Assembly (NCBI GenBank): GCA_963766325.1
Contig: CAVXZF010000013.1
Location: 71,653 to 135,652, forward strand
From: an uncultured Actinomycetota bacterium
GTDB taxonomy: Bacteria; Actinomycetota; Actinomycetes; Mycobacteriales; CADCTP01
DNA: 64,000 bases
Direction: 5' to 3'
Shown here piece by piece: positions 16,041-57,300 of the stretch (position 1 is the stretch's first letter; each line of letters opens with the position of its first letter). Position numbers and translations under genes: made by a program. The notes under the pieces are model-generated. The model was not told the DNA's origin and made no database searches. It was given only the letters and a program-made list of their open reading frames with translations.

Positions 16041-16096
16041 GCCCGCCCACTGAGCACTTCCGCCGCCCACTGAGCACTTCCGCCGCCCACTGAGCA
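16041..16096. repeat. 20-nt tandem repeat, about 2.8 copies (CGCCGCCCACTGAGCACTTC)
   Basis: Direct inspection. Lies in the 3'-3' intergenic region between the SDR and Clp_N genes. Confidence 0.85.
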
Positions 16097-16196: not shown

Positions 16197-16291
16197 CACC
16201 GCGGGAGCCAGCCAGCACCGCGGGAGCCAGCCAGCACCGCGGGAGCCAGCCAGCACCGCGGGAGCCAGCCAGCACCGCGGCGGCCAGCTGG
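16197..16291. repeat. 19-nt tandem repeat, 4 perfect copies plus 1 degenerate copy (CACCGCGGGAGCCAGCCAG)
   Basis: Perfect copies at 16197, 16216, 16235 and 16254; a degenerate copy at 16273. The unit is not a multiple of 3. The array ends 11 nt from the Clp_N gene stop. Confidence 0.9.
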
Positions 16292-24675: not shown

Positions 24676-25989
24676 ATGATCGACGACGGCCTGCGCTTCC
24701 CGCCCGGCTTCCTCTTCGGGACGGCCACGGCGGCGTACCAGATCGAGGGCGCGGTGGCCGAGGACGGGCGCGGGCCGTCCATCTGGGACACCTTCAGCCA
24801 CACCCCGGGCACCACCCGGGACGGCGACACCGGGGACGTCGCCTGCGACTCCTACCACCGCTCGGCCGAGGACGTCGCGCTGATGGCCGGGCTGGGCACG
24901 CAGGCCTACCGGTTCTCGATCTCCTGGTCCCGGGTGCAGCCGACCGGCTCCGGCCCGGTCAACCCGGCCGGCCTGGACCACTACTCCCGGCTGGTGGACG
25001 AGCTGCTGGCGGCGGGCATCGCGCCGGCGGCGACGCTCTTCCACTGGGACCTGCCGCAGGCGCTGCAGGACGCCGGCGGCTGGCGGTCGCGGGACACCGC
25101 CGAGCGCTTCGCCGAGTACGCCGCCGCGGTGGCCGGCACGCTCGGCGACCGGGTGGCCATGTGGATCACGCTCAACGAGCCGGTCGTGCACACCTTCAAC
25201 GGGCACGTCGAGGGCAGCCACGCCCCCGGCCTGCAGCTCGGCTTCGACGCGCTCGCCGTCGCGCACCACCAGCTGCTCGCGCACGGGCTGGCGGTGCCGG
25301 CACTGCGGGCCGCGTCGGCCGCGCCGGTGGGCATCACCAACAACTACTCCCCCGCCGACCCGGCGACGCCGGCCGACGCGGACGCGGCCGCCGGGGTGGA
25401 CGTGCTCTACAACCGGCTGTTCACCGACCCGGTGCTGCTCGGCCGCTACCCGGTCGACGTGCCCGGAGTGGCCGGCGGCGACCTCGCCGCCATCGCCGCG
25501 CCGGTGGACTTCCTGGGCGTCAACTACTACTTCCCGCAGCAGGTGCGGGCCGACCCGGCCGCCGCGCTCGGCTTCACCTCGGTGCCGGCGCCGGGCGAGC
25601 CGCGCACCGCCTTCGACTGGCCGGTGCTGCCGGACGGGCTGCGGCGCACGCTGCTCGACCTGCGCTCGGCGTACGGCGACGCGCTGCCGCCGGTGCACGT
25701 GACCGAAAACGGGATGGCGCACGACGACACCGTCGGTCCGGACGGAACGGTCGACGACCCGGCCCGGGTGTCCTACCTGGACGGTCACCTGCGGGCCGTG
25801 CGGGCCGCGATCGACGCCGGGGTGGACGTCCGCGGCTACTTCTGCTGGTCGCTGCTGGACAACTTCGAGTGGGCCGAGGGCTTCTCCAAGCGCTTCGGGC
25901 TGGTGCACGTCGACTTCGCCACCCTGGCCCGCACGCCGAAGACGTCGTACGGCTGGTACCGGGACCTGATCGCCGCGCAGCCACGCTGA
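24676..25989 (+). CDS. GH1 beta-glucosidase
   Basis: FLFGTATAAYQIEG, TLNEP (acid/base Glu), VTENG (nucleophile Glu). Confidence 0.92.
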   Translation: MIDDGLRFPPGFLFGTATAAYQIEGAVAEDGRGPSIWDTFSHTPGTTRDGDTGDVACDSYHRSAEDVALMAGLGTQAYRFSISWSRVQPTGSGPVNPAGLDHYSRLVDELLAAGIAPAATLFHWDLPQALQDAGGWRSRDTAERFAEYAAAVAGTLGDRVAMWITLNEPVVHTFNGHVEGSHAPGLQLGFDALAVAHHQLLAHGLAVPALRAASAAPVGITNNYSPADPATPADADAAAGVDVLYNRLFTDPVLLGRYPVDVPGVAGGDLAAIAAPVDFLGVNYYFPQQVRADPAAALGFTSVPAPGEPRTAFDWPVLPDGLRRTLLDLRSAYGDALPPVHVTENGMAHDDTVGPDGTVDDPARVSYLDGHLRAVRAAIDAGVDVRGYFCWSLLDNFEWAEGFSKRFGLVHVDFATLARTPKTSYGWYRDLIAAQPR

Positions 25990-25998
25990 GCCGCGCCG

Positions 25999-27255
25999 AT
26001 GCTGCCCGAACGGGTCGAGGTGGAGCCGGCGCGCCCGGTCCGCGCGCGGTTCGTCGCCACCCTGGCGCTGGCCAACCTGGCGCTGTGGATGGGGTTCTTC
26101 ACCCCGATCCAGCTGCTGCTGCCCCAGCAGCTGGAGGACATCGACGCCGACGGCAAGGTCGGCGCGCTGGGCTGGGTGACCGGCGCCGGCGCCGCGGTCG
26201 CCGTGCTGGTCACCCCGCTGGCCGGCGCGCTGTCGGACCGGACCACGTCTCGCTGGGGGCGCCGGCTGCCCTGGCTGGTCGGCGGCACCCTGGCCGCCGC
26301 GGCCGCGTTCGTGGTGCTGTCGCGGCAGTCCACCGTCCTCGGCGTGCTGGTCGGCTGGTGCCTGGCCCAGGCGTGCCTCAACGCCGCGTACGCCGGGCTG
26401 ACCGCCGAGGTGCCCGACCACGTGCCGGTCCGCCAGCGCGGGGTGGTGTCCGGCTGGTTCGGGCTGCCGCAGGCGGTCGGCGTGGTGGTCGGCGTCGCCC
26501 TGGTCACCTCGTTCACCACCACGTCCGGGGCCGGCTACCTGCTGGTGGCGGCCGTGATCGCCATGCTGGTGCTGCCCTTCGCCGCCGTCACCCGGGACGC
26601 CCGGCTGTCCCGGACGGACCGTCCACAGTGGTCGTGGTCCGGCTTCGCCCGCGGCTTCTGGGTCAGCCCGCGCCGGCACCCGGACTTCGGCTGGGCCTGG
26701 CTGACCCGCTTCCTCATCTCGCTCGGCAACGCGCTGGGCACCCTCTACCTGCTCTACTTCCTACGCGACCGGGTCGACTACGAGCGGCTCTTCCCGGGCC
26801 AGACCGCTGAGGACGGCGTGCTGGTGCTCATCCTCATCTACGCGGCCGGCGCGGTGGCCACCGCGGTGGTCGGCGGGGTGCTCTCCGACCGGTCCGGCCG
26901 GCGCAAGCCGCTGGTCATCGCGTCCAGCGTGGTGATGGCGGCCGGCGCGGTGCTGCTCGCGGTCTCGCCGACCTGGACCGCAGCGCTGGTCGCGGCCGGG
27001 CTGCTGGGCACCGGCTACGGCGTCTACATGGCCGTCGACACCGCGCTGATCACGCAGGTGCTGCCGACCGCCGGCGACCGCGGCAAGGACCTCGGCGTCA
27101 TCAACATCGCCAACGCCGCGCCTCAAGTGCTGGCGCCCGCGCTCGCCGCGCCGGTGGTGGCCAGCCTCGGCGGCTACCCGGTGCTGTACGGGCTGACCGC
27201 GCTGGTCACCCTGCTCGGCGCGGTGCTGGTGCTCCCCATCCGCTCGGTGCGCTGA
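25999..27255 (+). CDS. MFS transporter (glycoside-type context)
   Basis: 418 aa with multiple hydrophobic helices. LSDRTTSRWGRRLPW loop motif. Starts 10 nt after the beta-glucosidase stop. Confidence 0.85.
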   Translation: MLPERVEVEPARPVRARFVATLALANLALWMGFFTPIQLLLPQQLEDIDADGKVGALGWVTGAGAAVAVLVTPLAGALSDRTTSRWGRRLPWLVGGTLAAAAAFVVLSRQSTVLGVLVGWCLAQACLNAAYAGLTAEVPDHVPVRQRGVVSGWFGLPQAVGVVVGVALVTSFTTTSGAGYLLVAAVIAMLVLPFAAVTRDARLSRTDRPQWSWSGFARGFWVSPRRHPDFGWAWLTRFLISLGNALGTLYLLYFLRDRVDYERLFPGQTAEDGVLVLILIYAAGAVATAVVGGVLSDRSGRRKPLVIASSVVMAAGAVLLAVSPTWTAALVAAGLLGTGYGVYMAVDTALITQVLPTAGDRGKDLGVINIANAAPQVLAPALAAPVVASLGGYPVLYGLTALVTLLGAVLVLPIRSVR

Positions 27256-27297
27256 GCACGGCGCTGGGCCTCCTGCGTGACCGTCTCGCCAGAGGTC

Positions 27298-30200
27298 TCA
27301 CCCTGAAGGACTCATGAGCTTCTCGATCACCCGAAGGATCTGGATGGCGATGAAGCCTGCTCTCGTCCTCAGGCTGCTTCCTGGTGGGGGATAGGCGCTC
27401 TCCGGTGACACTCGTTCCACCGGATAGCGCTCCGGGAAGCCGACCAGCGGTTCCGTCTCCGGAGGTGGCGGCTCCTCCCACGGGGGCGTGACCGTGATCT
27501 CCGGCTCGTCCTCCGACGAGCCGCCCGGACTCTCCGACTCAGCGTCGATGTGCAGGCCACCGTGGTCGCCGGTCAGGCAACTGAGCGCCGCGGCAAGGCT
27601 CCCGTCGCAGCCGTCCGGGTCTCCACCGGAACCGCCGCCGAGGATCGAGCTCAGCTCCTCGTCGTCGGTCCCGCCGCTGTCGCAGCCGACCACCGGACCG
27701 CCACCGAAGAAGTTGATGATCGAACAGCGACCGTCCTCCGGGTCCGGGGTGATCTCCCGGATCGGTCCCTGGTCCGCCGGCACGTTGATCAGCGGACCCA
27801 GGTCGAGGTCGTCGATCGGGGTGACACAGCACGCCGGGCCGGGGTCCGCCTGCTGCTCACTCCAGTTGTGGATGACTTCCTGCTGCCGCTCCTGCGACAT
27901 GCCGGAGGTGATGCAGGGGCTTCCCGCGTCGGCACCGACGGGAACGCACAGCCCGCTGGGGTCCGCGTGGGTGACCGGGTTGTTGAGCCCGTAGGCGTAG
28001 GGGTTGATCGTCTGGGGGCGGGCCAGGTCGTAGAGGGGGTCCGTGGTCAGGAAGCGACCGATGACCGGGTCGTAGTAGCGGGCGTTGAGGTAGTTGAGGC
28101 CGGTGCGGTCGTCTTCGATCTGTCCGATCCAGCCGCGGTCGGTGGCCGGTTCGTCGGTGGTGCCTCGTTCCCCCCCGTACGGCAGGTAGGCACGGGTGAC
28201 CGACGGGGTGTTGGACCCGCTGGGAACGACGAGCTCCACCGAGTTCTGGTTGTCGGCGACGAGGTGGTCGACGCCGTGGGCGGTGCGGGTGCCGACGGCA
28301 GCGCCGTCCAAGGTGTAGGTGCGGACGACCTTGATCTCGCTGCCGCTGTTGTTGGCGTTGATCTCGTGGCCTTCGATGTACGCGGTGGCGCCGTCGACGT
28401 GGCGGCGCACCAGCCGGCTGCCGTCGGCGTCGTAGACGAAGCTGTTCTTGACGTTGCCGTTGGCCTCGCGGATCTCGTCGAGGAACCGGTCCGGTCCCCA
28501 GGCGACGGTGTCGGTGTTGCCGCCGACGGTGCGGGTGGCCTGCTGGCCGTTGGCGTCCCAGGTGTAGGTCCAGTCGTCCGACGCGCTAGGGCCGTCGATC
28601 GCGGTGGCGGCGTGTGGCCGGGCCGCGGTCGCCCCGGCCGGGTAGCTGTAGCTGAAGGTGTTGGTCTGGTCGGCACCTTCGACGCGGCGGGTGAGGTTGC
28701 CATCGGTGCTGTAGCTGTAGGTGTGGTGGTAGGCGAAGTTGGCGTCGCCCGCGCCGGGGGTGCCGGCGCAGGTGTCGGCCGGCGCCGTGGTGTAGGCGCG
28801 GGTGAGCCGGATGCGCTGGTCGTAGCCGAAGCACTCCCGCCAGGTCTTCGCCGCCAGCGTGGTGTTGCGCTCGGTGATGTTGCCGACCGGGTCGTAGCCG
28901 ATCTGGCGGTCCTGGACGACGGTGCCGGCGGCGTTGGCCTGCATCCGGCCCAGCCGCTGGTTGGCGTCGTACTCCCGCAGGGTCAGCAGCGCGCTGCTGC
29001 CCGTGGTGGCGCCGTAGCCCCACACCGCCGGCCGGGCGCGGTCGTCGTAGCCGAAGCCGGTGGCGTAGCTATAGTCCTGGTCGACCGGGCTGGTCGGAAG
29101 GAGCGTGCCGTCCAGCTTGGTGGGCAGCCCGAGGCTGTTGTAGGTGGTGGTGACGGTCTCGGCCGGCAGACCGCCGTTCTGCGGGTCGCCGACCTGGGGG
29201 TAGGCGACCGAGACGAGGTGGTCGGCGCGGTCGTGGCCGTAGCCGACCTGGTAGACGCCCTCCAGGCCGGGGACGTCGGCGCTGTAGAGCGTCCAGGACC
29301 TGCCGGTGGGCCGGGACCGGCCGTCGTAGCCGGTGACGTCGACGATGTACGCGCCCGGATGCTGCCCGGTGTGCTGCCACCGGGACGACCGGTTGAGCAG
29401 GCCGAGCTCCCCGGCGGCGTCGTACTCCCAGGAGGCCAGCCGGGTTCCGGTGGTGGCGCTGTCCTTGCGCCGCTCGGTGGGGCGGTCGATCGCGTCGTAG
29501 TTGGTGTAGATCCGCACGTTCCTGGCGTCGGTGACGAGGGTCTGGTTACCGGCGGGGTCGTAGCCGTAGGACCAGCTGCCGGCGTCCGGGTCCGACATGG
29601 CGGTGCGGCGGCCGGCCAGGTCGTAGTCGTAGCTGATCTGATGGTCGGCGGGGTCGGTGACGGTGGTGAGGTCGCCGGCGGCGTTGTAGCCGTACCGGGT
29701 GGTGGCCCACTGACTGCCGTCCTGCTCGGCGACGGACACCGGGCGGTCGTAGGCGTCGGTGACGGTGACGACGTCCCCGCCGACGTGCCGGTCGACGGCG
29801 GCCGAGTTGTGGGTGTAGCGCGTGAACGTGGAGTGACTGAGCTGGGTGCCGGCCCAGAAGAGCTCCCAGAAGGGCCGGGACAGCTCGTCGTAGGCGATCT
29901 GGGTGCGGTTGGCCCACCCGGCCGGCGGTGCGGGGAGGACCCCGGTGCCGGGAGTACCGGTGACCGCCTCGGCCGGGGTGACGAAGTGCTTGTTCCCGCG
30001 GTCGTCGTAGCTGGTGTCGACGACGATCACCTTGCCGGCCGCCGGGGACAGCCGCTGGTTCTGCCGCTCCCGCAGCATGCTGTCGTAGACCGACCAGGCG
30101 TCCACGTAGACGGTGGGGTTCGTGGACTGCAGCCGGCGGGTCCGCACGATCGGCGGCTTGCCCTTGGCGGGGTCGATGGCGTACGAGAACTCCCAGGAGG

Positions 30201-33200
30201 CCGGACCCGACGTGGGCTCGGTCGGCTGGAATGCCTTCGTGACCCGTCCCAGCGGGTCGTACGTGTAGCTGGTGGCCTTCCCGTTGGGGTTGATCTCCCT
30301 CGCCGGCGCCTGGCGTTCGATGAACCACTCCTGGCGGGTCTTGTGGCCGAGATGGTTGGTGACCTCGGTCGCGGTCGGGTACCCGCCGGAGGAGGGGGTG
30401 AGGTACGCGGTGGTCGTGCGGTGCTGGTTGGGGTCGGTGACCTGCAGCGGCCGGCCCAGCGCGTCGTACGTCGTGGCCGTGGACGCCCACGCCGTCGAGG
30501 TGAGCCGGGTCCGGGACCCGGTCGGGTTGCCACGGGTGGGCGGGACGCCGACGGCGCCGTTGTCGTACGAGGTCTCGCTCTCCCGCATGACCGTGGTGGA
30601 CGAGCAGGCCCCCCGTACCAGAGCCTGCAACTTCGGGTAGTCGAGCATCCAGGCGTCGAAGTTGAAGGCGTATTGGGTCTTGGTGCAGCGCTCGTCGCCG
30701 GTCTGGTCCAGCCAACCCTCTTCGAGCACCGTCTCCGGGAAGTGCAGGAACCCGTTGTACGCGGTGGTGGTGCGCTTGCGGGCGAACCCGCCCTCGGGCG
30801 TCCGGCGCCGCTCGGTCGCGGTTTCCTCGCCCGACCAGTTGGCCGACCTCTCCGAGTCGGGCTCGTTACCCCCGGTGGTGTCGTCGTCGACCGTGGTAAG
30901 AGTCTTGTAGGTGCGCAGCGTCCCGCGTTCGGTGGCGCCGCCCTTGAGCTGGGCCTCGTCGAAGGTGAGACCGGCCAGCCAGTTGAAGTCGCGGGCGGTG
31001 ACCGTCGTGTCGTCCAGCCCGTGGATGTCGACGGTCTTCGTGGTGGTGCTGTTGGCGATGCGGTCGTCGTGCATGCCGCGGAACACCCGGTAGCGCGTCA
31101 CCGAGCTCCCCTGGGTCATGGTCGCGGTGCCGTAGCCGCGCCAGTCCGACCAGGACTGGTCGGAGAGCTTGACGAACTCGTCCGCGTCGTGGTGCCACGC
31201 CGGGTGCTCGTCGCCGGCGATCCCGTAGCCGTAGGTGTAGGTCATGGCCGGTGACCCGCCCGTGGTGTCCTCCACCCTGACCTGGGTGACCAGCCACTTG
31301 TGGAAGATCCCGAACTGGGTCGGGCCGCCCTCGGGGGTCCACTGCTGGGGGAAGCAGTCGTACCGGTTGTCGTCCCAGCCCCCGGTCGGGTAGGGGTCAC
31401 CGTTGTCGCACGGGTGCGGCCGGCCGTACGTCGCCGTGACCTTGCGGCCGAACTCGTCGGTGACGGTCCCCATCCGGTAGTGCGGCATCCGGGACGCCGT
31501 CGACCCCGGGGCGACCACCCGGTTGTCCAGCTTCACCAGGTCGAACGTCACGCCCGGCAGGGTGAGCGGGGTGGCGCCGGCCAGGCCGGTGCGCTGCACG
31601 CCCTTCAGGTACAGCTTGCGGTCCCCGCCGCCGTTGTCCGCGTGCTCGTGGGTCAGCGTCACATCGTCGACCGGCTTGAACGTGGTCCCCACCCGCACCG
31701 ACGGGACGATCTTGGTGTAGCGCTTGGTGGAGAAGAACGTGGGCGACGTCTGGCTGCACCCGCTGCTGCACAGCAGGTCCAGCGGCACGTCCGGGTAGTC
31801 GGCCGGTGAGCTCGCCGAAGTCGGCGCCGGGCACGTCCCACCGACGTCCAGCGCCGCGCACCGGTGGCCGGCGCCGAACTCCACCTTGACCGCGGGTGCC
31901 TGGGTCGAGCCTTTCCGCGAGCCGTACTCGAGGAATTGCAGCCGCCCGCCCCGGACGTAGGACCGCTCACCCTGCAGCCCCATCACGGCCAGGTACTTGT
32001 TGGTCTCCTTGAAGTACCTGTACGTGGTCACGTTGTCGTTCGGGTCCACGACCCGGTCCAGCATCCAGCGCCAGCCCTGGTCGCAGATCTGGCCGGGGCT
32101 GGTCCGGCAGGGCTCCCCCGGGTGATTGCCGACCACCGGCACCGTCCACACCGAGCTGGTCGCCGTGTTGGTGTCCGGGTTCACCCCCAGGCCGAAGAAG
32201 TACTGGGTGCCGTCCGGCGTGGTGACCCGCCAGTACTCCCTGTCGTTGTCGCCGTTCGCGAAGGTGCCGGTCAGCTGCTCCACCCGCCAGCGCGGGTCCC
32301 GCTTGAGCCGCCACTGGGTGGGGCTCGAGCCGGGCATCCGCACCAGTTCCGACGCCCTCCCGTTCAGCGAGATCGTGGCGTTGTCCGACTTCCAGCACAG
32401 GTCGTAGAACGGTGCCGCGAACTCGTCGACCTCTTCGGCGCAGGTCGTGTAGCGGCGCTCGATGAAGGCCGAGGCGAAGTCGGCCCAGCCCACGCCGTTC
32501 TGCCCGGCCTGGGTGTTGCGGGTGGACACCATCCCGTCCACCGAGCCCGAGGAGTAGTTCAGGCTCACTGCCGGCGCGTTGCCGGCCGGCGGCGCCGGCA
32601 TGGGGGCCTCGTACGACCAGGAGAACTCGCCGGAGCCGACGCCCACCTGCCAGTCGCTGGACACCGACAGCGGCGACGCCTTGAAGTCCCCCGACTCGCC
32701 GGCCGGACCCGAGGTCACCGCCAGCACGACTGCCCCGGTGCCCGCGCTCAAGGCGGCCAGGTCGCCGACCTCGGCCACCAGCCGCTCCGCCGGCCCGTCA
32801 CGGCGGGTCGGGAACGCCGCTCCGCCGGCCCGGCAGCCCTTCGGGCGCGCAGCGGCCAGGGCGCACTCCGGCAGCGCCACCAGCCGCAGCCGGTCCGCGT
32901 AGCCCGACCCGTACCGGCGGGCGAAGCCGGAGTAGTCGATGGCGATCTCGACCGGCAGCGCGCCGCCGCCTGGTGCGGCCAGCTCGCGCTCGCCGGCGCC
33001 CGGCGTCACGCGGAACACGAAGCCGGCCACGCCGGCCCGCTCGGCCGCCGCCCGGTCGAGCACCTCCACCCGCAGCGGCGTACCGGCGCCGGCCGCCGAG
33101 CCGGCCGCCAGCTCCACTGGCGACGCGCCCGCCGCCCGCCACTCGCCCCGGGACCCCAACGTCACATCGGCCTTGTCCGGCCCGGGCAGCACCGCGCGCG

Positions 33201-33441
33201 CGGGCGCCACCGGCTTGTCGACGAGGCGTGGTGCGGAGGCAGCGGCCGGCACCGGCGGAGCCACCGGGTCGTTCCCGGCCGACCAGGGCCTCACCTTCGC
33301 CGGATCCGGACCCTGCCAGTCCGGGGTGCCCGGCGCCCGCTGCTCGGCGGCGGCAGTGGCCGGCGCCAGGCTCGTCACCACCGCCAGCGCCAGCAGCGCC
33401 GCGCCCCCGCGAAACTGGACCGGTCGCTTCACGGAACCCAT
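27298..33441 (-). CDS. secreted RHS/YD-repeat protein RHS1 (2047 aa) with unassigned 216-aa C-terminal tail
   Basis: Signal peptide MGSVKRPVQFRGGAALLALAVVTSLAPATAAAE. Many YD repeats (YDALGRP, YDPLGRV, YDAIDRP, YNSLGLP...). Core end ...LNARYYDPVIGRFLTTDP...NPVTHADPSGL, followed by an acidic Cys-rich tail (27298-27948). Confidence 0.9.
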   Translation of the reverse strand: MGSVKRPVQFRGGAALLALAVVTSLAPATAAAEQRAPGTPDWQGPDPAKVRPWSAGNDPVAPPVPAAASAPRLVDKPVAPARAVLPGPDKADVTLGSRGEWRAAGASPVELAAGSAAGAGTPLRVEVLDRAAAERAGVAGFVFRVTPGAGERELAAPGGGALPVEIAIDYSGFARRYGSGYADRLRLVALPECALAAARPKGCRAGGAAFPTRRDGPAERLVAEVGDLAALSAGTGAVVLAVTSGPAGESGDFKASPLSVSSDWQVGVGSGEFSWSYEAPMPAPPAGNAPAVSLNYSSGSVDGMVSTRNTQAGQNGVGWADFASAFIERRYTTCAEEVDEFAAPFYDLCWKSDNATISLNGRASELVRMPGSSPTQWRLKRDPRWRVEQLTGTFANGDNDREYWRVTTPDGTQYFFGLGVNPDTNTATSSVWTVPVVGNHPGEPCRTSPGQICDQGWRWMLDRVVDPNDNVTTYRYFKETNKYLAVMGLQGERSYVRGGRLQFLEYGSRKGSTQAPAVKVEFGAGHRCAALDVGGTCPAPTSASSPADYPDVPLDLLCSSGCSQTSPTFFSTKRYTKIVPSVRVGTTFKPVDDVTLTHEHADNGGGDRKLYLKGVQRTGLAGATPLTLPGVTFDLVKLDNRVVAPGSTASRMPHYRMGTVTDEFGRKVTATYGRPHPCDNGDPYPTGGWDDNRYDCFPQQWTPEGGPTQFGIFHKWLVTQVRVEDTTGGSPAMTYTYGYGIAGDEHPAWHHDADEFVKLSDQSWSDWRGYGTATMTQGSSVTRYRVFRGMHDDRIANSTTTKTVDIHGLDDTTVTARDFNWLAGLTFDEAQLKGGATERGTLRTYKTLTTVDDDTTGGNEPDSERSANWSGEETATERRRTPEGGFARKRTTTAYNGFLHFPETVLEEGWLDQTGDERCTKTQYAFNFDAWMLDYPKLQALVRGACSSTTVMRESETSYDNGAVGVPPTRGNPTGSRTRLTSTAWASTATTYDALGRPLQVTDPNQHRTTTAYLTPSSGGYPTATEVTNHLGHKTRQEWFIERQAPAREINPNGKATSYTYDPLGRVTKAFQPTEPTSGPASWEFSYAIDPAKGKPPIVRTRRLQSTNPTVYVDAWSVYDSMLRERQNQRLSPAAGKVIVVDTSYDDRGNKHFVTPAEAVTGTPGTGVLPAPPAGWANRTQIAYDELSRPFWELFWAGTQLSHSTFTRYTHNSAAVDRHVGGDVVTVTDAYDRPVSVAEQDGSQWATTRYGYNAAGDLTTVTDPADHQISYDYDLAGRRTAMSDPDAGSWSYGYDPAGNQTLVTDARNVRIYTNYDAIDRPTERRKDSATTGTRLASWEYDAAGELGLLNRSSRWQHTGQHPGAYIVDVTGYDGRSRPTGRSWTLYSADVPGLEGVYQVGYGHDRADHLVSVAYPQVGDPQNGGLPAETVTTTYNSLGLPTKLDGTLLPTSPVDQDYSYATGFGYDDRARPAVWGYGATTGSSALLTLREYDANQRLGRMQANAAGTVVQDRQIGYDPVGNITERNTTLAAKTWRECFGYDQRIRLTRAYTTAPADTCAGTPGAGDANFAYHHTYSYSTDGNLTRRVEGADQTNTFSYSYPAGATAARPHAATAIDGPSASDDWTYTWDANGQQATRTVGGNTDTVAWGPDRFLDEIREANGNVKNSFVYDADGSRLVRRHVDGATAYIEGHEINANNSGSEIKVVRTYTLDGAAVGTRTAHGVDHLVADNQNSVELVVPSGSNTPSVTRAYLPYGGERGTTDEPATDRGWIGQIEDDRTGLNYLNARYYDPVIGRFLTTDPLYDLARPQTINPYAYGLNNPVTHADPSGLCVPVGADAGSPCITSGMSQERQQEVIHNWSEQQADPGPACCVTPIDDLDLGPLINVPADQGPIREITPDPEDGRCSIINFFGGGPVVGCDSGGTDDEELSSILGGGSGGDPDGCDGSLAAALSCLTGDHGGLHIDAESESPGGSSEDEPEITVTPPWEEPPPPETEPLVGFPERYPVERVSPESAYPPPGSSLRTRAGFIAIQILRVIEKLMSPSG

Positions 33442-33446
33442 CGCCG

Positions 33447-33594
33447 CCTCCAGATCGTGAGCGGGCCGGCCGGCACCCCGGGCCGAGCGGGCGGGCGCAG
33501 CGCCGCCAGACGGCCGGAGGAGTCGACACCAGAGCGCAGACGGAATGATTCAGGTGCGTATCCGGCACCGAAAGGCCACTACGAGGCCACTTCG
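33447..33594 (-). promoter_or_regulatory. conserved RHS 5' leader (paralogue of 40225-40369)
   Basis: The 25-mer CCTCCAGATCGTGAGCGGGCCGGCC (33447-33471, covering the RBS) is identical to 40225-40249. AGGCCACT at 33573-33580 and 33584-33591 has an 11-nt period, mirrored at 40348-40366. Confidence 0.6.
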
Positions 33595-33783
33595 CACCGT
33601 AACCGGGCCCAGGCGGCTGGCCGCCGACGCCGTCACCAGAGGTAACCGCGGCCCTGGCCGGTTCGGCTGGCAAGCCATGGGAGCGGTCAGTTAGACACTG
33701 TCGGCGTACGAGGGAATGATTCCGGCAGCCGGCCGCCATCCAGACAGGCCGCTTCTGGCCATCGAGAGGGGAACCGACGCACG

Positions 33784-36120
33784 ATGACTTCCGACGCCGG
33801 ACCCGGGACCGACGGGTCGGCACTGGCGGCGCTGATCCGCGCCTGGCGGGAGCGTGCGCTGCTCACCCAGGAACTGCTCGCCGACCGGGCCGGGTTGGGC
33901 GTGCGCACCATCCGGCGGCTCGAGTCCGGCAGCCTGCGCCGCCCCCGCAGCGGTTCGATGCGGCTGCTCGCCGACGCCCTCGGCCTGAGCGACCAGGAGC
34001 GGGCGCTGCTGACCGCGGCGGCCCGCGGCGGCCCGCCGGCGTCGCAGCCGACCGTCCCGCACCAGCTGCCCGCGGACGTGGCCGGGTTCGCCGGTCGGGT
34101 CGACTTCCTGGCCCGCCTGGACGCCCTGCTGGCCTCGACCGGCGGTGCGCAGCCGACCGCGGTGGTGATCTCCGCGGTCTCGGGTACGGCCGGGGTGGGC
34201 AAGACCGCCCTGGCGGTGCACTGGGCGCACCGGATCCGCGGGCGGTTCCCGGACGGGCAGCTGTACGTGAACCTGCGCGGGTTCGACTCGGCGGGGCAGG
34301 TGACGACCCCGGCCGAGGCCCTGCGCGGGTTCCTCGACGCCCTGCAGGTGCCGGTCGCGCGCATCCCGGCGAGCCTGGATGCGCAGGCCGCGCTCTACCG
34401 CAGCCTGATGGACGGCAAGCAGATGCTGGTGGTGCTCGACAACGCCCGCGACGCCGGGCAGGTGCGCCCGCTGCTGCCCGGCAGCCCGACCGTGATGGTG
34501 CTGGTGACCAGCCGCCGCCTGCTCACCAGCCTGGTGGCCGCCGAGGGTGCCCATCCGCTCACCCTGGACCTGCTGACCCCGGACGAAGCCCGGGAGCTGC
34601 TGACCCGCCGGCTCGGCCCGGAGCGCATCGCCGCCGAGCCCGAGGCGGTCAGCGAGATCATCACCGGGTGCGCGCGGCTACCGCTGGCGCTGACGATCGT
34701 GGCCGCCCGCGCCACCCAGTCCGATCTTCCGCTCGCCGTGCTGGCGGCCGAGCTCGCGAAGGACCGCGCGCGCCTGGACACGCTCGATGCCGGCGACCCG
34801 GTCAGCGAGGTACGAGCGGTGTTCTCCTGGTCCTACACCGCGCTCAGCCCGGCCGCGGGGCGGCTGTTCCGGTTGCTCGGACTGCATCCCGGCCCGGACG
34901 CCTCCGCGGCGGCGGCAGCCAGCCTGGTCGGCCTCCCGGCCCGACAGACCCGCCAGCTGCTGGCCGAGCTCGCCGGGGGCAGCCTGCTGACCGAGCGCGC
35001 TCCCGACCGGTACGCCTTTCACGACCTCCTCCGCGTCTACGCCGCGGACCTGGCCGGCAGCCACGATCCCGTGGCTCAACGCCGGGCCGCCCTCGGCCGG
35101 GTGCTCGACCACTACGTGCACACCGCCTATGCCGCCGCCCGGCTGCTCAACCCGCACCGCGACCCGATCGCCCTCCCCCTGACCCGGCCGGCGCCCGGCG
35201 TCATCCCGGAAGACCTCGTCGACGAGAGGCACGCGCTCGACTGGCTGACCGCCGAGCGTCCGGTCCTGGTCGCCACGGTCCGGCACGCCGCCGGTGCCGG
35301 GTTCGACACCCGGACCTGGCAGCTGGCCTGGGCGCTCGACAACTTCCTTGACTGGCAGGGCCACTGGGACGACTTCGCCACCGTCTGGCACGCCGCGTTG
35401 GAGGCCGCGGTGCGGCTCGAAGACCCGGCCGCACAGGCCTATGCCCACGGCGGCCTCGCCCGCGCCGACACCCGGCAGGGCCGCTACGACCGGGCCCGCG
35501 ACCGCTGCCTGCGCGCGCTCGACCTGTACGGGCAGGCCGGCGACGCCGCCAGCCAGTCGCACACGCACTGCTATCTCACCTACGTGTGCGACCGGCAGGG
35601 CCGGCCCGACCAGGCTCTCCGGCACGCCGAGCAGGCCCTCGTCCTGGCCCGGGCCGCCGGACACCGCCGCGGGCAGGCTGCCGCCCTCAACGCCGTCGGC
35701 TGGTGCCAGACCCAGCTCGGCGACCATCACCGCGCCCTCGCCTGCTGCGAGGAGGCGCTCACGCTGGTCCGGCAGCTCGGCGACCGCGCCGGGGAGGCCG
35801 GCACGTGGGACAGTCTCGGCTACGCCCACCACCACGCCGGCCAGCACCCACAGGCCGCGGACGCGTACCGGCACGCCCTCGATCTCTACCGGGATCTCGG
35901 CGACCGCTTCGGCGAAGCGGACACCCTCACCCGCCTCGGCGACAGCCGGCACACCGCGGGCGACCCCGCCGGCGCGGGCACCGCCTGGCGACAGGCGCTG
36001 GACATCCTCACCGAGCTCGGCCACCCCGACACCGACAGCCTCCGCGCCAAGCTCGACGACCTCGACCTGCCGCTCACTGCGAGTCGTAGTACGAGTCGAC
36101 GGCGGCGTAGCAGCCGATGA
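33784..36120 (+). CDS. STAND NTPase: XRE-type HTH + NB-ARC P-loop + TPR repeats
   Basis: HTH LIRAWRERALLTQELLADRAGLGVRTIRRLESG. Walker A GTAGVGKTALA. LVVLDNA. Arm RLPLAL. C-terminal TPR-like repeats (..AQAYAHGGLARA.., ..ALNAVGWCQTQLGD.., ..TWDSLGYAHHHAGQ..). Confidence 0.85.
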   Translation: MTSDAGPGTDGSALAALIRAWRERALLTQELLADRAGLGVRTIRRLESGSLRRPRSGSMRLLADALGLSDQERALLTAAARGGPPASQPTVPHQLPADVAGFAGRVDFLARLDALLASTGGAQPTAVVISAVSGTAGVGKTALAVHWAHRIRGRFPDGQLYVNLRGFDSAGQVTTPAEALRGFLDALQVPVARIPASLDAQAALYRSLMDGKQMLVVLDNARDAGQVRPLLPGSPTVMVLVTSRRLLTSLVAAEGAHPLTLDLLTPDEARELLTRRLGPERIAAEPEAVSEIITGCARLPLALTIVAARATQSDLPLAVLAAELAKDRARLDTLDAGDPVSEVRAVFSWSYTALSPAAGRLFRLLGLHPGPDASAAAAASLVGLPARQTRQLLAELAGGSLLTERAPDRYAFHDLLRVYAADLAGSHDPVAQRRAALGRVLDHYVHTAYAAARLLNPHRDPIALPLTRPAPGVIPEDLVDERHALDWLTAERPVLVATVRHAAGAGFDTRTWQLAWALDNFLDWQGHWDDFATVWHAALEAAVRLEDPAAQAYAHGGLARADTRQGRYDRARDRCLRALDLYGQAGDAASQSHTHCYLTYVCDRQGRPDQALRHAEQALVLARAAGHRRGQAAALNAVGWCQTQLGDHHRALACCEEALTLVRQLGDRAGEAGTWDSLGYAHHHAGQHPQAADAYRHALDLYRDLGDRFGEADTLTRLGDSRHTAGDPAGAGTAWRQALDILTELGHPDTDSLRAKLDDLDLPLTASRSTSRRRRSSR

Positions 36121-49182: not shown

Positions 49183-49221
49183 GATCCGATAGAGCCGCTC
49201 CGCGGCTGATCCGATAGAGCC
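49183..49221. repeat. 14-nt direct repeat GATCCGATAGAGCC x2 (25-nt period) at the RHS-fragment boundary
   Basis: Copies at 49183-49196 and 49208-49221. The second copy abuts the last RHS-derived codon (49222). Confidence 0.8.
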
Positions 49222-50095
49222 CCGCACCCCCATCAACACCATGCCCGACGGCGTCTCCGCCGACCGCTGCTTGGCGCCGAGCCACCCGTAGCGGGCCGCC
49301 GGACTGCCGGCCCGCGCGTTGCCGTACTCGTCCGCGGCGAGCACCGTCGGCACGATCGAGGTGTCCAGTGGAAGTTGCAGCGCGACGTCGCCGTGCAGGT
49401 TGGTCAGCTGGAGCAGCGTGCCGCCGGAAGCGGTGGTGGTTGCGGCGAGGTCGCCGGAGAGAGATTCGACGTTGCGGGTGACTGCGGCGGTCGCGGTGTT
49501 CTCCACCGTCCACTTCGGCTCGTCGCCCGCACCGTCGTAGTGGTTGAGCCGGGTCGCCGTCGTCACCCACGACCCGGAGGCGTTCGACTCGGTGGTCCAC
49601 CCCCGCGGCCGCATCGACGCATCCAGCGTCCAACTGGACCGCACCGTCCCGGCGGTCTGTTGCTGCACGAGATCGGTCGCGCAATACGCCGTGAGCAGCA
49701 CGCACAGCGGTGTAGGACCTGTGTCGCGGACGCCCATGAGGACCATGCCGGTCGGGTCTCCGCCGAGCGCTGCTTGGCGCCGAGCCAGCCGTAGCGGGCG
49801 GCCGGGCTTCCGGAACGGGGGTTGCCGTACTCGTCCGCGGCCAGCACCGTCGGCGCGACTGCGGTGTCCAGCGGGTGCAGGTGGTGTCGGTGGCGTCCAG
49901 GACGGTGGTCAGCCGGCCGGCCTTGTCGTAGGCGTAGTCCTGTTCGGACTGCTGGCCGGGGGTGCCGGTGTGGGCGAGCCACTGCCCGTGCACCGACTCG
50001 GCGACCGCGTCCCCGGCCACGATGGCGTCGCCGGAGTCGCCGGAGTCGCGGGTGTACGTCCGCGCGGTCGATCACCGGCGAGGTCGGGGTCTACC
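49222..50095 (-). pseudogene. two truncated RHS core fragments (paralogous to RHS3 residues around TAYYATDLVQQQ...GMTLMGVR)
   Basis: Fragment 1 (49746-49222): TAYCATDLVQQQTAG...NLHGDVALQLPLD...AADEYGNARAGSPAARYGWLGAKQRSAETPSGMVLMGVR. Fragment 2 (about 50095-49747): ...GDAVAESVHGQWLAHTGTPGQQSEQDYAYDKAGRLT..., an internal deletion and frame changes, then ...LDTAVAPTVLAADEYGNPRSG.... No C-terminal tail follows either fragment. Confidence 0.75.
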
Positions 50096-51391: not shown

Positions 51392-54300
51392 TCAACCTGC
51401 CCACGGCCCCCGAAAGATGTCGAACTTGCGCCCACTCCCGGTTCGCACTCGGAAGGTCCAGCGATGACGTTCTCCCACTCTCTTTACGCTCCAGCCTAGA
51501 CGCCAGCCCTTGTTCCCGCGCTGGTTGAACACACCGGGCTTTGCGCCCGGTCTCGCACCCGCATTACCGAACCAGCGGCTTTGCACTCCCCAGCGTCGGC
51601 TCTTGAAAAGTGATTGGCCCGCCCAGCTCCAGCTCCTTACGCTTTGTCGACCGACCCATCTTGCCGAGCTCTTAAGGTAGCGCCCCCCCGCCCGACCAGC
51701 TGAGCCACACCACCGCTTGCAGGCAGTGGAAGCTCCGCGGGCGATAAAGCCCCAGATTCGACCGTCAAGGTCCTGTTTGTTGACGGGGTCGGCACAGGTG
51801 TAGTCGTAGTCGTTGCAGGAGCCGCCGACGATAGGGTCGGTCTGGAGGAACCGGCCGGTGGCCGGGTTGTAGACCCGGACGCCCATGAGGGTCATGCCGG
51901 TGGGGGTCTCGGCGGAGCGTTGGTGGGCGCCGAGCCAGCTGTAGCGGGCAGACGGCGTGCCGGCGCGGGGGTTGCCGTACTCGTCGGTGGCCAGGACGGT
52001 CGCCGCGATCGCGGTGTCCAGCGGCAGTTGCAGGGTGACGTCGCCGTGCAGGTTGGTCAGCTGCAGCACCGTCTCACCCGCGGCTGCGGTCGTGGCGGCC
52101 AGGTCGCTGGACAGGGACTCGACGTTGCGGGTGATGGCGGCGGTGCCGGTGTTCTCTACCGTCCAGCGCGGTTCGTCGCTGGTGCCGTCGTAGTGGTTGA
52201 GCCGGGTCGCGGTCGCCGTCCAGGTGCCGGAGGTGTTGGACTCGGTGGTCCATCCGCGGGACCGCATGGCCGCGTCGAGGGTCCAGGTGGTGCGGGCTGT
52301 GCCGGCGGTCTGCTGCTGGACCAGGTCGGTGGCGTAGTAGGCGGTGACCACGGCGCCGGGTGAGGTGGTGGTGCGGCCGAAGGCGTCGTAGCCGTAGCCG
52401 GGGTCGGTGATCCGGTCGGCCGAGTCGTAGGTGTGGGTTGTGGTGGTGGCGCCGGTGGTGGGGCAGGTTGTCGCTCCGGGGGCGCTGGTGACGGTGGACT
52501 GGGTCAGCCGGTTGGAGCGGGCGTTGAAGCCGTAGGTGCGGCGGGTGCAGGTCACGTCCGTCCTGTCCTGCACGACGGTGAGCCGGCCGGTCTTGTCGTA
52601 GGCGTAGTCCTGTTCGGATTGCTGGCCGGGGGTGCCGGTGTGGGCCAGCCATTGCCCGTGCACGGATTCGGTGACGGCGTCGCCGGTGATGACGGCGCTG
52701 TCGGAGTCGCGGGTGTAGGTGCGGGCGGTGGGTGAGCCGGTGGGGTCCTCGGTCTGGGTGAGGGTGTAGCCGCCGGGCAGCTTCTCGGCGGCGAGCGTGC
52801 CGTCGGGGTTGTAGGTGGCGTGGAAGGAGCCGGCGACCGAGTCGGTCATCGCGGTGGCCAGCCCTCGGGGTTCGAGCGCGGTGTCGTAGGTGTAGGTGGT
52901 GGACGACGGGACCGTGTCGGACACGGTGGTGGGCCGGTCCAGCGCGTCGTAGGAGGTGGTGGTCGTCGCGCCGTCGGCGTCGGTGTAGATACGGGTCCGG
53001 CCGAGAACGTCGTAGCCGGTGGTGATCGTTCCGCCGGTCGAGGAGGTGACGGTGGTGGCCAGGCCGGTGGCCGGGTCGTAGCCGGTGGTGACGACCGGCA
53101 CGGCGGTGCCGACCCCGCCGGTCACGGTGACCGAGGTGGGCCGGTCGGCGGGGTCGTAGCCGGTGGTGGTGGTGCGGGTGACGCCGTTGGCGGTCTCGGT
53201 GACGACGGTGGCGGCGCCGTAGCGGCCGTACTCGGTGGTGGTGGTGACCGCCTGGGTCGGGTTCGACCCGCCGCCGGTGATCGCGCCGGCTGGGGCGGTC
53301 TGGCAGACCTGGTCGGCCCATTCCGGCCGGCCACCGCACGGAGCTGCGCCGGTCGCGGTGTAGTAGGTGGTGATCACAGCGGCGGCGTCGGCGCCGGTCG
53401 ACCCCGGCGGAATGGTCTTGCTGACCCGGCCCTGGTCGTCGTACTGCGTGGCGTTGGTGATCGCCAGCCCGCCGGGGTCCTGCACGGTCGAGGTGACCAC
53501 GCCCTTGACCCAGTCGTACGCCGTCGTGGTCGCCCGCGGATCGGCGAACAGGTCCGGCCGCGACCGCAGCTGCGCTCCCACGGTGGCCTTGGTGACCTGG
53601 TCGCGGACCGTGGCGGTGCCGTCGGTCGGACGGCCAGTGTCGTACTCGTTCACCGTCCGGGCCCGGGCGACCACCCGGGACCCAGCCGCGGCGACGGTGG
53701 TCGCCCCGTCGACCAGGGCCGCTTCGAGGGTGATCTCGTGCGCCGGGGCGAGCTGTTCCAGCTCGCGGGTGCCGGTGTCGTTGTAGATCGACCGGGTCGA
53801 CAGCTGCTCGGCCCGCTCCGCCGCCGGTAGACCGCCGATGCCCAGCGCGGCCAGCTCGGCGCTGTCCGCCGGTGTCGCGCCCAGCGCGAGGGCGCGGTTG
53901 GCCGCGGACAGCTCGCGGACGGTGTTGCCGAACTTGTCGTACTCGGTGGTGACGATGTTCCCGGCCGGGTCGGCGGTGTTCACCGTCAGCCCGGACACGT
54001 TCAGATAGGACAGTGACGCCCGCCCGTACGAGCCGGCGCCGAGGCCGCTGCCGGTGTGCGAGGCCGGGACGGCGTCGGCCGGGAACACCGCGGTGGCGTC
54101 GGTGGGCAGGTCGGTCTGCCCCCAGCCGGCGACCACACCCGCGTCGAGTTGATGCGGCGCCGCGGAACCGGACAGCGGCACGCTGTAGACCAGCGAGGTC
54201 GTGGCGGTGCCGTTGGTCTCGGTCACGCTGCCCGGGGTCAGCGTCGGCCGGGACACCGACAGCAGCATCCCGTCATCCACGGTCGCCGGGTCCCCGGCCG

Positions 54301-57300
54301 GCCCGTAGGAGAACGTCCACGGCAGCTGCCCGGGCGGCGTCATGCTGGTGACCCGCCCGGCGGTGTCGTAGCCGTAACCAACCTTCAGCGCCGGGCTGGT
54401 CCGGGGATCCCACACCTCCCGCAGCCGCCCGGAGGCGTCGTAGGCGTAGCTGACCACCGTGGTCGCCGTCGAGGCCGCGGCGCCAGGCGTGGTCGCCCAC
54501 ACCTGGATCGCCGACACCTGCCCGGCGTAGTCACCGAGCGTGCCGCCGGTCGCGGTGGTCGCCGACGCGTAGACGAACTCCAGCACCCGGCAGCCCCGGG
54601 TGGTCGGGTCGGCCTGGCACGCCGCCACCGTCACCGCCGAGGTCGGGGCGATGATCCGCCTGGGCCGGGCCCTCGTCTCGGTGCCGACCACGACCGCCTC
54701 GGACACCGTGGTGGTGGTCGAGTTGGTCAACCCGTCCAGCAGCGAGGACGTGACCGACCAGGTGGCCGCGGCCGGCGCGACTTTGCCGAAAGTGGTGACG
54801 GTGCCGCCGGTGTCAGACAGCGTAAAGCTGCCGGCGAAGGTGCCGGTCAGGGTGAGGTCCTCGGCGCCCGGCTCGGGCACCCACCCGCCGCCGGCCTTGG
54901 CGGTGAAGTGGATCGCCTCGTCCTCGGCGTCCACCACGTCCAGCGACGTGGCCGAGGTCTGGCGGATGAAGGCGTAGTCGGACTCGGTGTCCTCGGCCTC
55001 GATCCCGGACACCCACTGCGGGCCGAAGATCGCGACCTGCCCGGCCTGCGGCGGCGCCGGCGGCGGGCGCCCGGGACGACGCGGTGCGGGTGATCGACAT
55101 CCCGAACATCGACGCCTCGGTCCCCGAGATGGTGTAGTCGCCGGTCAGCAGGTTCACCGACCCCGGGCCGACCTCGTCGGTGGCGGCGCCGTCGGCGTTG
55201 CGGTCCACAACCACGGTGACCGGATCGGTCGCACCGGTCCCACCCGGGCCGGTGAAGTCGGCCCGGATCTGCACGGTCCCGTCGGGGTTGACGGTGTCGG
55301 TGGCGGTCCAGGCCAGCGGCGCGTTCTTCCCCGCGGTCATGGGCACCGGCCAGGCGGTCAGCGGGGCGCCGCCGCTGGTGACATGCGCCGGCGGGATCGC
55401 CGTCCAGGTGTCGGTCTCCGCCCGCCGCCAGGAGAACGACACGGCGTCGTACTTGGTGCCGTCGGCCTCCGCAGCCAGCGAGACCCGGCGGGCGGTGCGC
55501 TGCCCGTCAGCCGGGGAGTCGAACCCACCCGGCCCGGCGTGGAACACGTACGACACCGGGTCCGACCGGTTGTCCGCCTTGTCCACCGCCCGCACCTGCA
55601 ACGTCTGCGTCCCGTTGCGCGGCGGCGTCACCGAGAACGTCTTCGCCGTCGACGCGCCACCGGTGGCGACCTTCGTCCACTGGGTACCGTCCAACGACCA
55701 CTCGACCCACTGATGGTCACCGCCGGCCGGCGGCGTGACCGTGAAGCTCCCGGCCTGCCCGGCGCCCTTCACCCACGCATTGGTCGGATAATCCGTGGAG
55801 GACAGACCGGTCGGCGCCGACGGGTGGACGGTGTCGACCACGAACGTCACCGGCCCCGCCGACGTGGTCTCCCAGTGCGTCCCGTCGTAACAGACGACCT
55901 TGAAGGTGTAGGTCCTGCCATGCACCAGCACCCCCGCCGGCACCGTCGCCGACGCGACCTGCCCGGCCGGCACGTACGCCGAGTTCACCGACGCCACCTG
56001 CGTCGTCCCGTCGAACACCAGGAACGTCGCCCGCACCGCGTCGTTGTTCGCATCCCCCGTCGTCGCCCGCAGCGTCGGCGTCGCCGTGTCCACGTAATAC
56101 GCCCCGCCGGTGGCGAAGAACGGCGGCCCCGCCTGCAGGTTCGTCGAGTCCAGCGGCCGGTAGTTGTAGGTCACCGTCAGCTTCGGCGCGTACGCCGCGG
56201 AGTGATTCGCCGAGGTGAACCGCTTGTAGTACGTCGCGTCCGTCTCCGACGACGCCCGCAACCCCATCCCCGTCGTCGCCGCCCCCGCCGACGCCCACTG
56301 CCCCACCATCGCCGTCACATCCGCCGTCACCCAACCCGCCGCCGTCGCGCACGAACCACCCTTCGACGCCGTCGAGGTCACCACCGCCGGATCGGAATAC
56401 CACGCCGGCTGCGACGTCCACCGCGTCGAGATCGACGCCAGCCCCGTCGACCACACCTGCCACCCCCGCGAACACGCGCCCGACGCCAGGTTCCACAGCT
56501 GCACCGTCGCCGAGGACACCAGCGCACCCGCGATCGGCGCCGTCCGCCAATTCACGAAACTCCGGTTGACCACCGCATTGTTCGCCGACGCGCCGATCCG
56601 CAGCTCCGTCGCCGCGGACAGATCCGGGGTGTAAAGCTCCTGCACCCACGTGTCGAACATATTGGTCAACGTCGCCGTCGACGGATCCACCGTCACCGGA
56701 TACACCGTCGCCGGATCAGCCAGGAACCCCGCATCCGGGACGACCCGCAGCTCCGAGCCGGACAACTCCATCCGCACCGGCACCCGCCGCAGGTGATCCC
56801 CGGTGACCGGGTCGGTCGCCGCGTCCCACATCTCCGCCGCCGGCATCACCGCCACCGCCCGCCCGGTCACCGCATCGACGAACCGGAACCCACCGCCCTT
56901 CTGCGACTCCGCCCGCAACCCCGCCGCCGACAGCGGCAACGTGAACGACATGTCCGTCCCGGCCGCCGGCCGCTGCTTGACGACCAGCAGCTGCTCGAAC
57001 CCGGTCGGCCGCGACTCCACCACCAGAGTCCGAGCCCGGCACCACCTCGGGATACGTGGCCCGCCGGCCATCCAACACCGGCTCCGGCAACCCGCCGCGC
57101 CAGCCCAACCCGATAGACCGGCCGTGAGCCGTCACCGACACCAACGGCCGCGACGCCGCGGACCGCGCCGCCGCCAGCGACGTCGCCCGGACCCCGCCGG
57201 CCTTGCCCAGCCGCAGGTCACCGGGATGCGCCCGCGATGTCACCGACCCGTCCGACCGCCGGGTCAGCGTCTCGTCGATGTCCACCCACTGACCGGCGCG

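Follow-up and report, generated by a model that had tools for sequence, protein, structure and literature searches.

A conserved 11-nt-phased tandem repeat as a probable operator of an XRE-headed STAND regulator encoded beside giant RHS genes in Actinomycetota

Proteins with an XRE-type helix-turn-helix (HTH) domain usually bind inverted repeats as symmetric dimers, and the classical members of the class, the XRE/Cro-cI repressors, are small dimers on inverted repeats. The RRNPP regulators (Rgg, PlcR, PrgX, NprR) join an N-terminal XRE HTH to a C-terminal TPR ligand-sensing domain and control secreted factors; they have no NB-ARC/NOD ATPase, are found in Firmicutes and bind palindromic boxes. 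Two other arrangements are relevant here: the STAND activator MalT recognises several asymmetric boxes arranged as direct repeats, and in LysR-type pairs a single intergenic site represses the regulator gene and activates the divergent target. Closest to the present case, AfsR, one of the large SARP/STAND activators of Streptomyces, binds the 22-bp afs box, which consists of a pair of 11-bp direct repeats, as a side-by-side dimer that contacts the first 8 bp of each repeat, and the boundary of its SARP domain lies at Ala270 (PMC10936776).

We analysed a window of 64,000 nucleotides (the whole stretch of DNA under study, 64 kb) from an uncultured Actinomycetota bacterium, in which a regulator gene (33784-36120, plus strand, 778 aa) encodes a relative of AfsR with a different head. 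Pfam places an XRE HTH at residues 13-76 (HTH_3/HTH_31), an NB-ARC domain at 129-314 and four TPR_12 matches in the TPR region; this is the STAND architecture, in which an NB-ARC/NOD ATPase stands between a DNA-binding effector domain and a C-terminal TPR sensor and in which DNA binding or activation is controlled through nucleotide-dependent switching or oligomerisation in the family at large. Residues 76-746 match positions 272-930 of the NCBIfam AfsR model (E = 1e-135), a part that comprises the NOD domain, the arm and the TPR regions, and the XRE HTH stands where the SARP head would be. The head of AfsR is an OmpR-type winged helix plus BTAD, whereas Pfam finds neither Trans_reg_C nor BTAD in this protein; the winged-helix binder of OmpR or SARP type that had been proposed in a preliminary description of this DNA is therefore not what the adjacent gene encodes. 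Paralogues with SARP, TIR or adenylate-cyclase heads are 60-68% identical to the NB-ARC/TPR chassis of the regulator, and the group to which it belongs has the HTH subtype WRERALLTQEQLAxRxGLGVRTIRRLE. An XRE HTH fused to TPR and the proposed control of secreted factors are shared with the RRNPP proteins, from which the regulator differs by its NB-ARC/NOD ATPase, by its occurrence outside Firmicutes and by the absence of a palindromic box. A literature search for XRE-NB-ARC-TPR regulators or for STAND control of RHS genes found no description of either.

The regulator gene lies between two RHS genes. RHS1 (27298-33441, minus strand, 2047 aa) comprises a Sec-type signal peptide, a weak SpvB-like N-terminal region, RHS repeats and an RHS-associated core; RHS2 (36074-40219, minus strand, 1381 aa) comprises a signal peptide, CBM96/DNRLRE, DUF6531, RHS repeats and a core. 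The signal peptides of both, of Sec type, were called by inspection. RHS_repeat, YD_repeat_2x and Rhs_assc_core, the hallmarks of RHS/YD polymorphic toxins, are present in both proteins, whose C-terminal tips have no Pfam match and which are only ~24% identical to each other. Homologues of RHS1 are annotated SpvB/TcaC, and over ~1800 aa RHS1 is 47% identical to, and orthologous with, the RHS proteins encoded divergently from regulator homologues on two other contigs (L134 and L140).

The regulator gene and RHS2 converge and share 47 nt at their 3' ends (window positions 36066-36120). Homology between the regulator and that of its closest relative (contig L001) ends ~18 codons before the regulator stop codon, which suggests that RHS2 replaced the original C-terminal end of the regulator. 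Elsewhere in the window there is a third RHS locus (49218-50046, 51392-57071 and 51871-52716), where a CBM96 N-terminal ORF (54813-57071) overlaps an RHS-repeat ORF (51392-55012), a pair that may be frameshifted; duplicated RHS 3' fragments downstream (79-87% identical) look like orphan toxin tips. Neither the repeat nor the cassette described below is present at this third locus.

RHS1 and the regulator gene are separated by a divergent intergenic region of 342 nt (33442-33783), as previously noted. Within it, the minus strand reads CGA-AGTGGCCT-CGT-AGTGGCCT at 33573-33594 (plus-strand reading, AGGCCACTacgAGGCCACTTCG), and the end of the proximal unit is 132 nt from the RHS1 ATG at 33441. Upstream of RHS2 the minus strand reads CGA-AGTGGCCT-CTC-AGTGGCCT at 40348-40369 (plus-strand reading, AGGCCACTgagAGGCCACTTCG), 129 nt from the ATG at 40219. 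The 8-mer direct repeat at 11-nt spacing upstream of both RHS genes, the central observation of the preliminary description, was thus recovered exactly: the 19-nt pattern AGTGGCCT-N3-AGTGGCCT occurs twice in the window against 0.00 expected from 100 dinucleotide shuffles. All four copies of the 8-mer in the 64 kb lie inside the two tandem sites. A scan of the window for further copies of the tandem pattern, with up to three mismatches allowed, found none, and single units elsewhere in the window occur at chance frequency only. The element is not random in the window. A position matrix additionally recovers a weaker third in-phase unit, AAGTGCCC, after the RHS2 repeat.

The GGCC core is the only self-complementary part of the unit. 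The units are arranged head-to-tail, and in every locus the conserved T that precedes GGCC recurs in direct orientation; the inverted-repeat half-sites of a classical XRE operator, which would accommodate a symmetric dimer, are absent from the tandem repeat. Three known elements were considered as its identity and discarded: the half-site of the DasR element dre, AGTGGTCT, agrees at 7 of 8 bases, but dre is palindromic; the AdpA consensus TGGCSNGWWY fails at positions 7-10; and the spacing does not fit an ECF-type promoter. The window contains two other intergenic tandem arrays, at 16041-16096 (three units of 20 nt) and 16197-16290 (five units of 19 nt), which both score below the threshold of the repeat matrix. 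The 20-nt unit of the first reads as had been reported, and its resemblance to the RHS2 form of the repeat was judged to be chance and the array unrelated.

The two sites in the window are not independent, since they belong to one duplicated 5' cassette. The RHS1 copy (33342-33594, minus strand) extends from about -153 to +100 relative to the ATG and contains the repeat, an AT-rich box, the leader, the ribosome-binding site (RBS) and signal-peptide codons; the RHS2 copy (40120-40369, minus strand) is its paralogue. The two copies are 74% identical over ~250 nt. Homology begins exactly at the distal edge of the repeat, and identity is at background level beyond the repeat and after the signal peptide. 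The nearly identical distances of 132 and 129 nt to the start codons, correctly reported earlier, are therefore an inherited spacing and do not represent independent conservation. Within the cassettes, the 16 core positions of the repeat are all identical and two of the three spacer positions differ; at 74% overall identity, the probability of 16/16 identical core positions is ~0.008. A 26-nt block that includes the RBS, GGCCGGCCCGCTCACGATCTGGAGGC (33446-33471, minus strand), is identical to 40224-40249 and is far better kept than the remainder of the cassette; this block is absent from loci of the L134 type, has no Rfam match and gives no fold signal.

The origin of the cassette can be followed further. 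The only detectable orthologue of RHS2 (contig L128, 85% identity) is preceded by AT-rich DNA that, like its signal peptide, is unrelated to that of RHS2; the two are homologous only from the mature protein onwards and the cassette is absent, which indicates that the cassette belongs to the RHS1/RHS2 pair of this genome rather than to the RHS2 lineage. Read on the plus strand, the RHS cassettes are in turn paralogous to the core of the regulator promoter, with the common elements TCGACA/TAGACA, GGAATGATTC and AGGCCACT; the local alignment of the RHS1 cassette with the L001 promoter core has z = 7.0, and none of 1000 shuffles aligned as well. Because this core was duplicated, the AT-rich 10-mer GGAATGATTC is present twice in the divergent region (33542-33551 and 33713-33722), as had been observed. 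A copy of the regulator-promoter core (a GATGTT box, then the repeat) is also found on the plus strand of the RHS2 cassette (40318-40543), facing a divergent glycosyltransferase gene (40543-41874), which may be under the same control.

Loci that encode regulators of the same HTH subtype (57-91% identical to that of the window; all on metagenome contigs) were used for comparison. The same 11-nt-phased repeat stands beside the regulator gene in all six other loci for which DNA was available, in the same orientation and just upstream of the regulator. Read in the RHS sense, it is AGTGGCCG-gtc-AATGGCCG in L134, AATGGCCG-gca-AATGGCCG in L136, ACTGGCCC-acc-AATGGCCT in L137, AATGACCT-gac-AATGGCCG in L135, AGTTGCCT-gtt-TTTGTCCT in L140 and TATGGTCA-cga-AGTGGCCT in L001; the consensus is A(A/G)TGGCC(G/T)-N3-A(A/G)TGGCC(G/T). 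For an independent test, the pattern derived from the window alone was scored on the regulator-upstream regions of these six loci. The best match in each was 12-13/16, always on the strand pointing away from the regulator, and the numbers of equal-length background windows from the same loci that scored as well were 0/591, 3/450, 0/359, 0/292, 2/572 and 0/134. A matrix built from the repeat instances found no other site scoring ≥15 in 214 kb; it recovered a weaker third in-phase unit in other loci as GATGACCT, GGTGACCT or GACGACCT. Given this fixed position and orientation in six other loci, the repeat is no relic of duplication; it is conserved and very probably regulatory, and the earlier suggestion of tandem protein-binding units on one face of the helix gains support. 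The neighbouring STAND regulator, likewise named earlier as a possible binder, becomes the best candidate, as the repeat travels with its orthologues and paralogues in these loci.

The pairing of the regulator with an RHS gene is itself conserved. In six of eight loci of this HTH subtype the divergent neighbour of the regulator is a giant RHS gene or what remains of one: a giant RHS gene lies across 79-156 nt in L134, L136, L140/L141 and two P0094 loci, and a 197-aa remnant of an RHS1-like gene is found in L137-L139. L135 and L001 have the regulator and no RHS neighbour. L001, a contig of MAG GCA_035641815.1, is the closest relative (regulator 91% identical) and has a partial array with neither RHS1 nor RHS2 adjoining; compared with window positions 24676-36120, its GH1, MFS and regulator genes are in the same order and RHS1 and RHS2 are absent. 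RHS content around the regulator thus varies between close relatives. Because RHS1 is orthologous to the RHS proteins of L134 and L140, the regulator/RHS1 pair is ancestral by this comparison, and L001 most likely lost RHS1; the converse, that RHS1 is an insertion relative to L001, was considered and is overturned by the same orthology. L140 has both a changed recognition helix (AVRTIRGLE versus GVRTIRRLE) and the most divergent repeat (AGTTGCCT/TTTGTCCT), a hint, from one locus, that recognition helix and repeat sequence may co-vary.

Conservation extends to the surrounding promoter region. Five loci align as CTGGAATCTGCC-N13-GATAATCGAGG-N8-CGGCCATTnnnCGGCCAnTTC, where the CGGCCATTnnnCGGCCAnTTC part is unit-N3-unit-TTC and the regulator ATG follows ~10 nt later, and this three-block footprint stands in otherwise diverged DNA. 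In the regulator direction, it resembles TGGAAT-18-GATAAT with the array and the ribosome-binding site immediately behind. In these other loci, the repeat lies ≤10 nt from the regulator start codon, downstream of the inferred -10 and abutting the Shine-Dalgarno sequence. Such geometry, with the array between the -10 and the ATG, suggests autorepression, and autoregulation is consequently at least as well supported as activation of the RHS gene. In the RHS direction, the array lies over the -35/spacer region of a GATTAT box (12 nt away; L134 and L136) or ~55 nt upstream of a CAGATT box, which in L140 is directly followed by the RHS ATG. A consensus promoter scan found no canonical promoter on the RHS strand of the window, and none in L134, L136 or L137, so that these promoters were placed by inspection only.

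In the window itself, the only -10-like boxes downstream of the repeats are AATCAT (33545-33550, minus strand), a candidate RHS1 -10 located 22 nt downstream of the proximal unit, and GAACAT (40319-40324, minus strand), a candidate RHS2 -10 located 23 nt downstream. On the plus strand the former box (AATGAT, 33544-33549) is a copy of the regulator-promoter -10. The predicted regulator promoter, TAGACA-17-AATGAT (33692-33720, plus strand), is kept in L001 as TAGACG-17-GATGAT. Between it and the regulator gene, the leader contains a decayed repeat array, AGGCCGCT-tc-TGGCCATC (33746-33763, plus strand), which has a 10-nt period (9/11 bases) and has thus lost the phase; the corresponding sequence in L001 is AGGCCACT-tcg-TGACCATA.

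The repeat can now be compared with the operators of described systems. Like the afs box, it consists of two 11-bp direct repeats with eight conserved and three free bases (PMC10936776), with variable spacers in the window as in the six other loci, and it would lie close to a weak, putative -35. The afs box overlaps the -35/spacer region and is centred near -29.5; here, 22-23 nt separate the end of the proximal unit from the candidate -10 boxes of the window, and 12 nt separate it from GATTAT in L134 and L136, -10 boxes that were all assigned by inspection. The differences from AfsR, apart from the head, are that the repeat sequence is unrelated, that the array is mostly found behind the inferred -10 of the regulator gene itself, as for a repressor, and that the target would be an RHS toxin gene, whereas AfsR acts on afsS or antibiotic clusters. 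With XRE/Cro-cI repressors the regulator shares the HTH fold class and an operator between its own -10 and the start codon, which again suggests autorepression; it differs from them in its head-to-tail units with an 11-nt period and in its NB-ARC ATPase and TPR sensor. By analogy, the logic proposed for the regulator/RHS pair would be that of MalT and of the LysR-type pairs, although the LuxR-type C-terminal HTH of MalT and the winged HTH of LysR are unrelated to the XRE HTH found here. We consider it a probable, if far from certain, reading of these sequence comparisons that the repeat is a tandem operator for the adjacent XRE-HTH/NB-ARC/TPR regulator, serving autorepression and probably activation of the RHS gene. 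Weighing against it are the head-to-tail units, unusual for an XRE-type protein, the negative promoter scan, the decayed leader copy in the window, and L001 and L135, where the regulator stands without an RHS neighbour.

The exact 16-base pattern was also sought in a larger collection of genome contigs, which gave at least 119 matches from all phyla, a mixture of coding coincidences and genuine 11-nt tandem duplications. Among the matches listed (L002-L120), 43 of 119, from unrelated phyla, are true tandem duplications of AGTGGCCT at an 11-nt period; GAC is the spacer in 10 cases, against ~2 expected. No flanks among them resemble those of the window, whose own genome is not in the list, and they show no connection with this system. 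The only neighbours among the matches listed that match the regulator or RHS proteins of the window are an NB-ARC/TPR coding region with the site inside it (L011) and a weak HTH match (L088). Four matches in Chloroflexi MAGs (L032, L040, L071 and L088) share a ~300-nt conserved non-coding element with AGTGGCCTCCTAGTGGCCT, of which one MAG has two copies; this element, apparently a repeated or mobile one, was set aside as unrelated to the RHS system. Two further searches yielded no candidates. All seven matches to a 19-nt leader block in metagenome contigs were chance, and a tblastn search of a plasmid collection with the HTH region gave as its best hit a 45%-identical paralogue in Nonomuraea gerenzanensis whose recognition helix differs and which has neither an RHS neighbour nor the repeat.

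An alternative that deserves weight is that the operator is real and is bound by another factor encoded elsewhere, either an OmpR/PhoB-type response regulator or a SARP-headed AfsR paralogue, which would control the XRE-STAND and RHS genes. Two 11-bp direct repeats in an 8+3 layout are the binding signature of winged-helix SARP/OmpR proteins (PMC10936776). Potential binders of this kind exist, as SARP-headed paralogues are 62-68% identical to the NB-ARC/TPR part of the regulator, and in L133 (1400-6238) a SARP(BTAD)/NB-ARC/TPR gene stands directly upstream of an RHS1-like SpvB/RHS gene pair. The region upstream of the L133 gene, however, has no AGTGGCCT-like repeat. Furthermore, the repeat accompanies the XRE-headed gene in seven loci, two of them without an RHS neighbour, SARP or OmpR genes are not a consistent feature of these neighbourhoods, and the repeat is unlike the SARP consensus, TCGAGXX. 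We regard a binder encoded elsewhere as unlikely. Independently of this question, L133 represents a second STAND-head variant linked to the same toxin type.

The position of the array could instead point to a role at the RNA level in the 5' leader of the regulator, through a GGCC/GGCC hairpin or an RNA-binding protein beside the ribosome-binding site, with the RHS copies as passengers of the duplication. The array does end ≤10 nt from the regulator ATG and abuts the Shine-Dalgarno sequence in five loci, and the two GGCC cores can pair, with a consensus fold that predicts a 4-bp stem. Such pairing is an automatic by-product of repeating a palindromic core, however; the stem is lost in L140 and L001, and the fold contains only two compensatory pairs, which are uninformative as they come from a two-sequence alignment. 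The perfect copies in the window lie outside the regulator mRNA, and the copy inside the leader is decayed. An Rfam scan of 33000-41000 at E values up to 10 returned only noise, and the leaders are not more stable than shuffled sequences (z-scores of +1.97 and +0.53), so that no sign of a structured RNA leader or riboswitch was found. A function in the RNA is thus quite improbable.

We give slightly less credit still to the possibility that the repeat is a promoter element, either an upstream element or a -35-like sequence for RNA polymerase with an alternative sigma factor of ECF type. The repeat abuts the place where a -35 would be expected for the candidate -10 boxes AATCAT and GAACAT, and ECF-like strings occur downstream (GGAAC or GAATC, ~19-20 nt, TCGAC). 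Their spacing of 19-20 nt is, however, too long compared with the usual 16-17, alternative-sigma promoters are not known to be tandem 8-mers at an 11-nt period, and on the regulator strand of other loci the best -10 precedes the array.

Finally, a functionless 11-nt slippage duplication, carried along when the 5' cassette was copied between the RHS genes, would fit the shared ancestry of the two window copies and the many perfect 11-nt tandem duplications with this 8-mer in unrelated genomes (the 43/119 given above), but it hardly merits belief and is contradicted by the six-locus test. The cores are perfectly kept while spacers and flanks diverge, and the phased repeat recurs at the equivalent position in six other loci, although protein identity there is only 57-60% in all but one case (91%). 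This far exceeds neutral non-coding conservation, and the ~40% protein divergence argues against recent horizontal copies of one DNA segment.

The repeat, its conservation, placement and orientation, the pairing of the genes and the domain architecture are direct observations; under the preferred reading, that of an operator for the adjacent regulator, we infer the binding protein, the transcription starts and the sign of regulation as follows. The operator would be made of 11-bp-phased head-to-tail units, each with eight conserved bases, A(A/G)TGGCC(G/T), and three free ones; two units are strong, often with a weaker third. The binder would be the adjacent AfsR-type STAND protein, with its XRE helix-turn-helix in place of the SARP head. 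In the presumed ancestral layout, one array in a short divergent region of 80-160 nt would serve both genes. Lying just downstream of the regulator's inferred -10 and beside its ribosome-binding site, it would mediate autorepression; the same array would lie upstream of the promoter of the giant secreted RHS (SpvB-like/Tc-BC-like) toxin gene, where protomers bound side by side would activate transcription after the NB-ARC/TPR part has sensed a signal. In this genome the control module would have been duplicated, leaving a perfect copy with RHS1 and a decayed one in the regulator leader, and a third copy, together with leader and signal peptide, would have been grafted onto the unrelated RHS2, placing it under the same control.

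To our knowledge, almost nothing has been described of what turns on RHS and Tc-like toxin genes in Actinobacteria. The conserved triad of regulator, operator and toxin provides a testable handle on this question, with one protein, one 19-bp site and three promoters; without confirmed binding, the repeat would be a well-conserved but ordinary cis-element. More broadly, and more tentatively, with the balance leaning slightly against it, the locus may represent an uncharacterised actinobacterial class of STAND regulators, in which an XRE-headed AfsR chassis binds head-to-tail on 11-bp-phased repeats and couples a signal to giant secreted RHS/Tc-BC-like toxins through a portable module, here grafted onto RHS2. 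If true, this would be a natural domain swap on the AfsR chassis, and one could ask whether side-by-side binding to direct repeats, as seen with SARP domains, is also within reach of an XRE HTH. The cassette also illustrates how an unrelated toxin gene can join a regulon in one step, when promoter, leader and signal peptide are duplicated as one piece.
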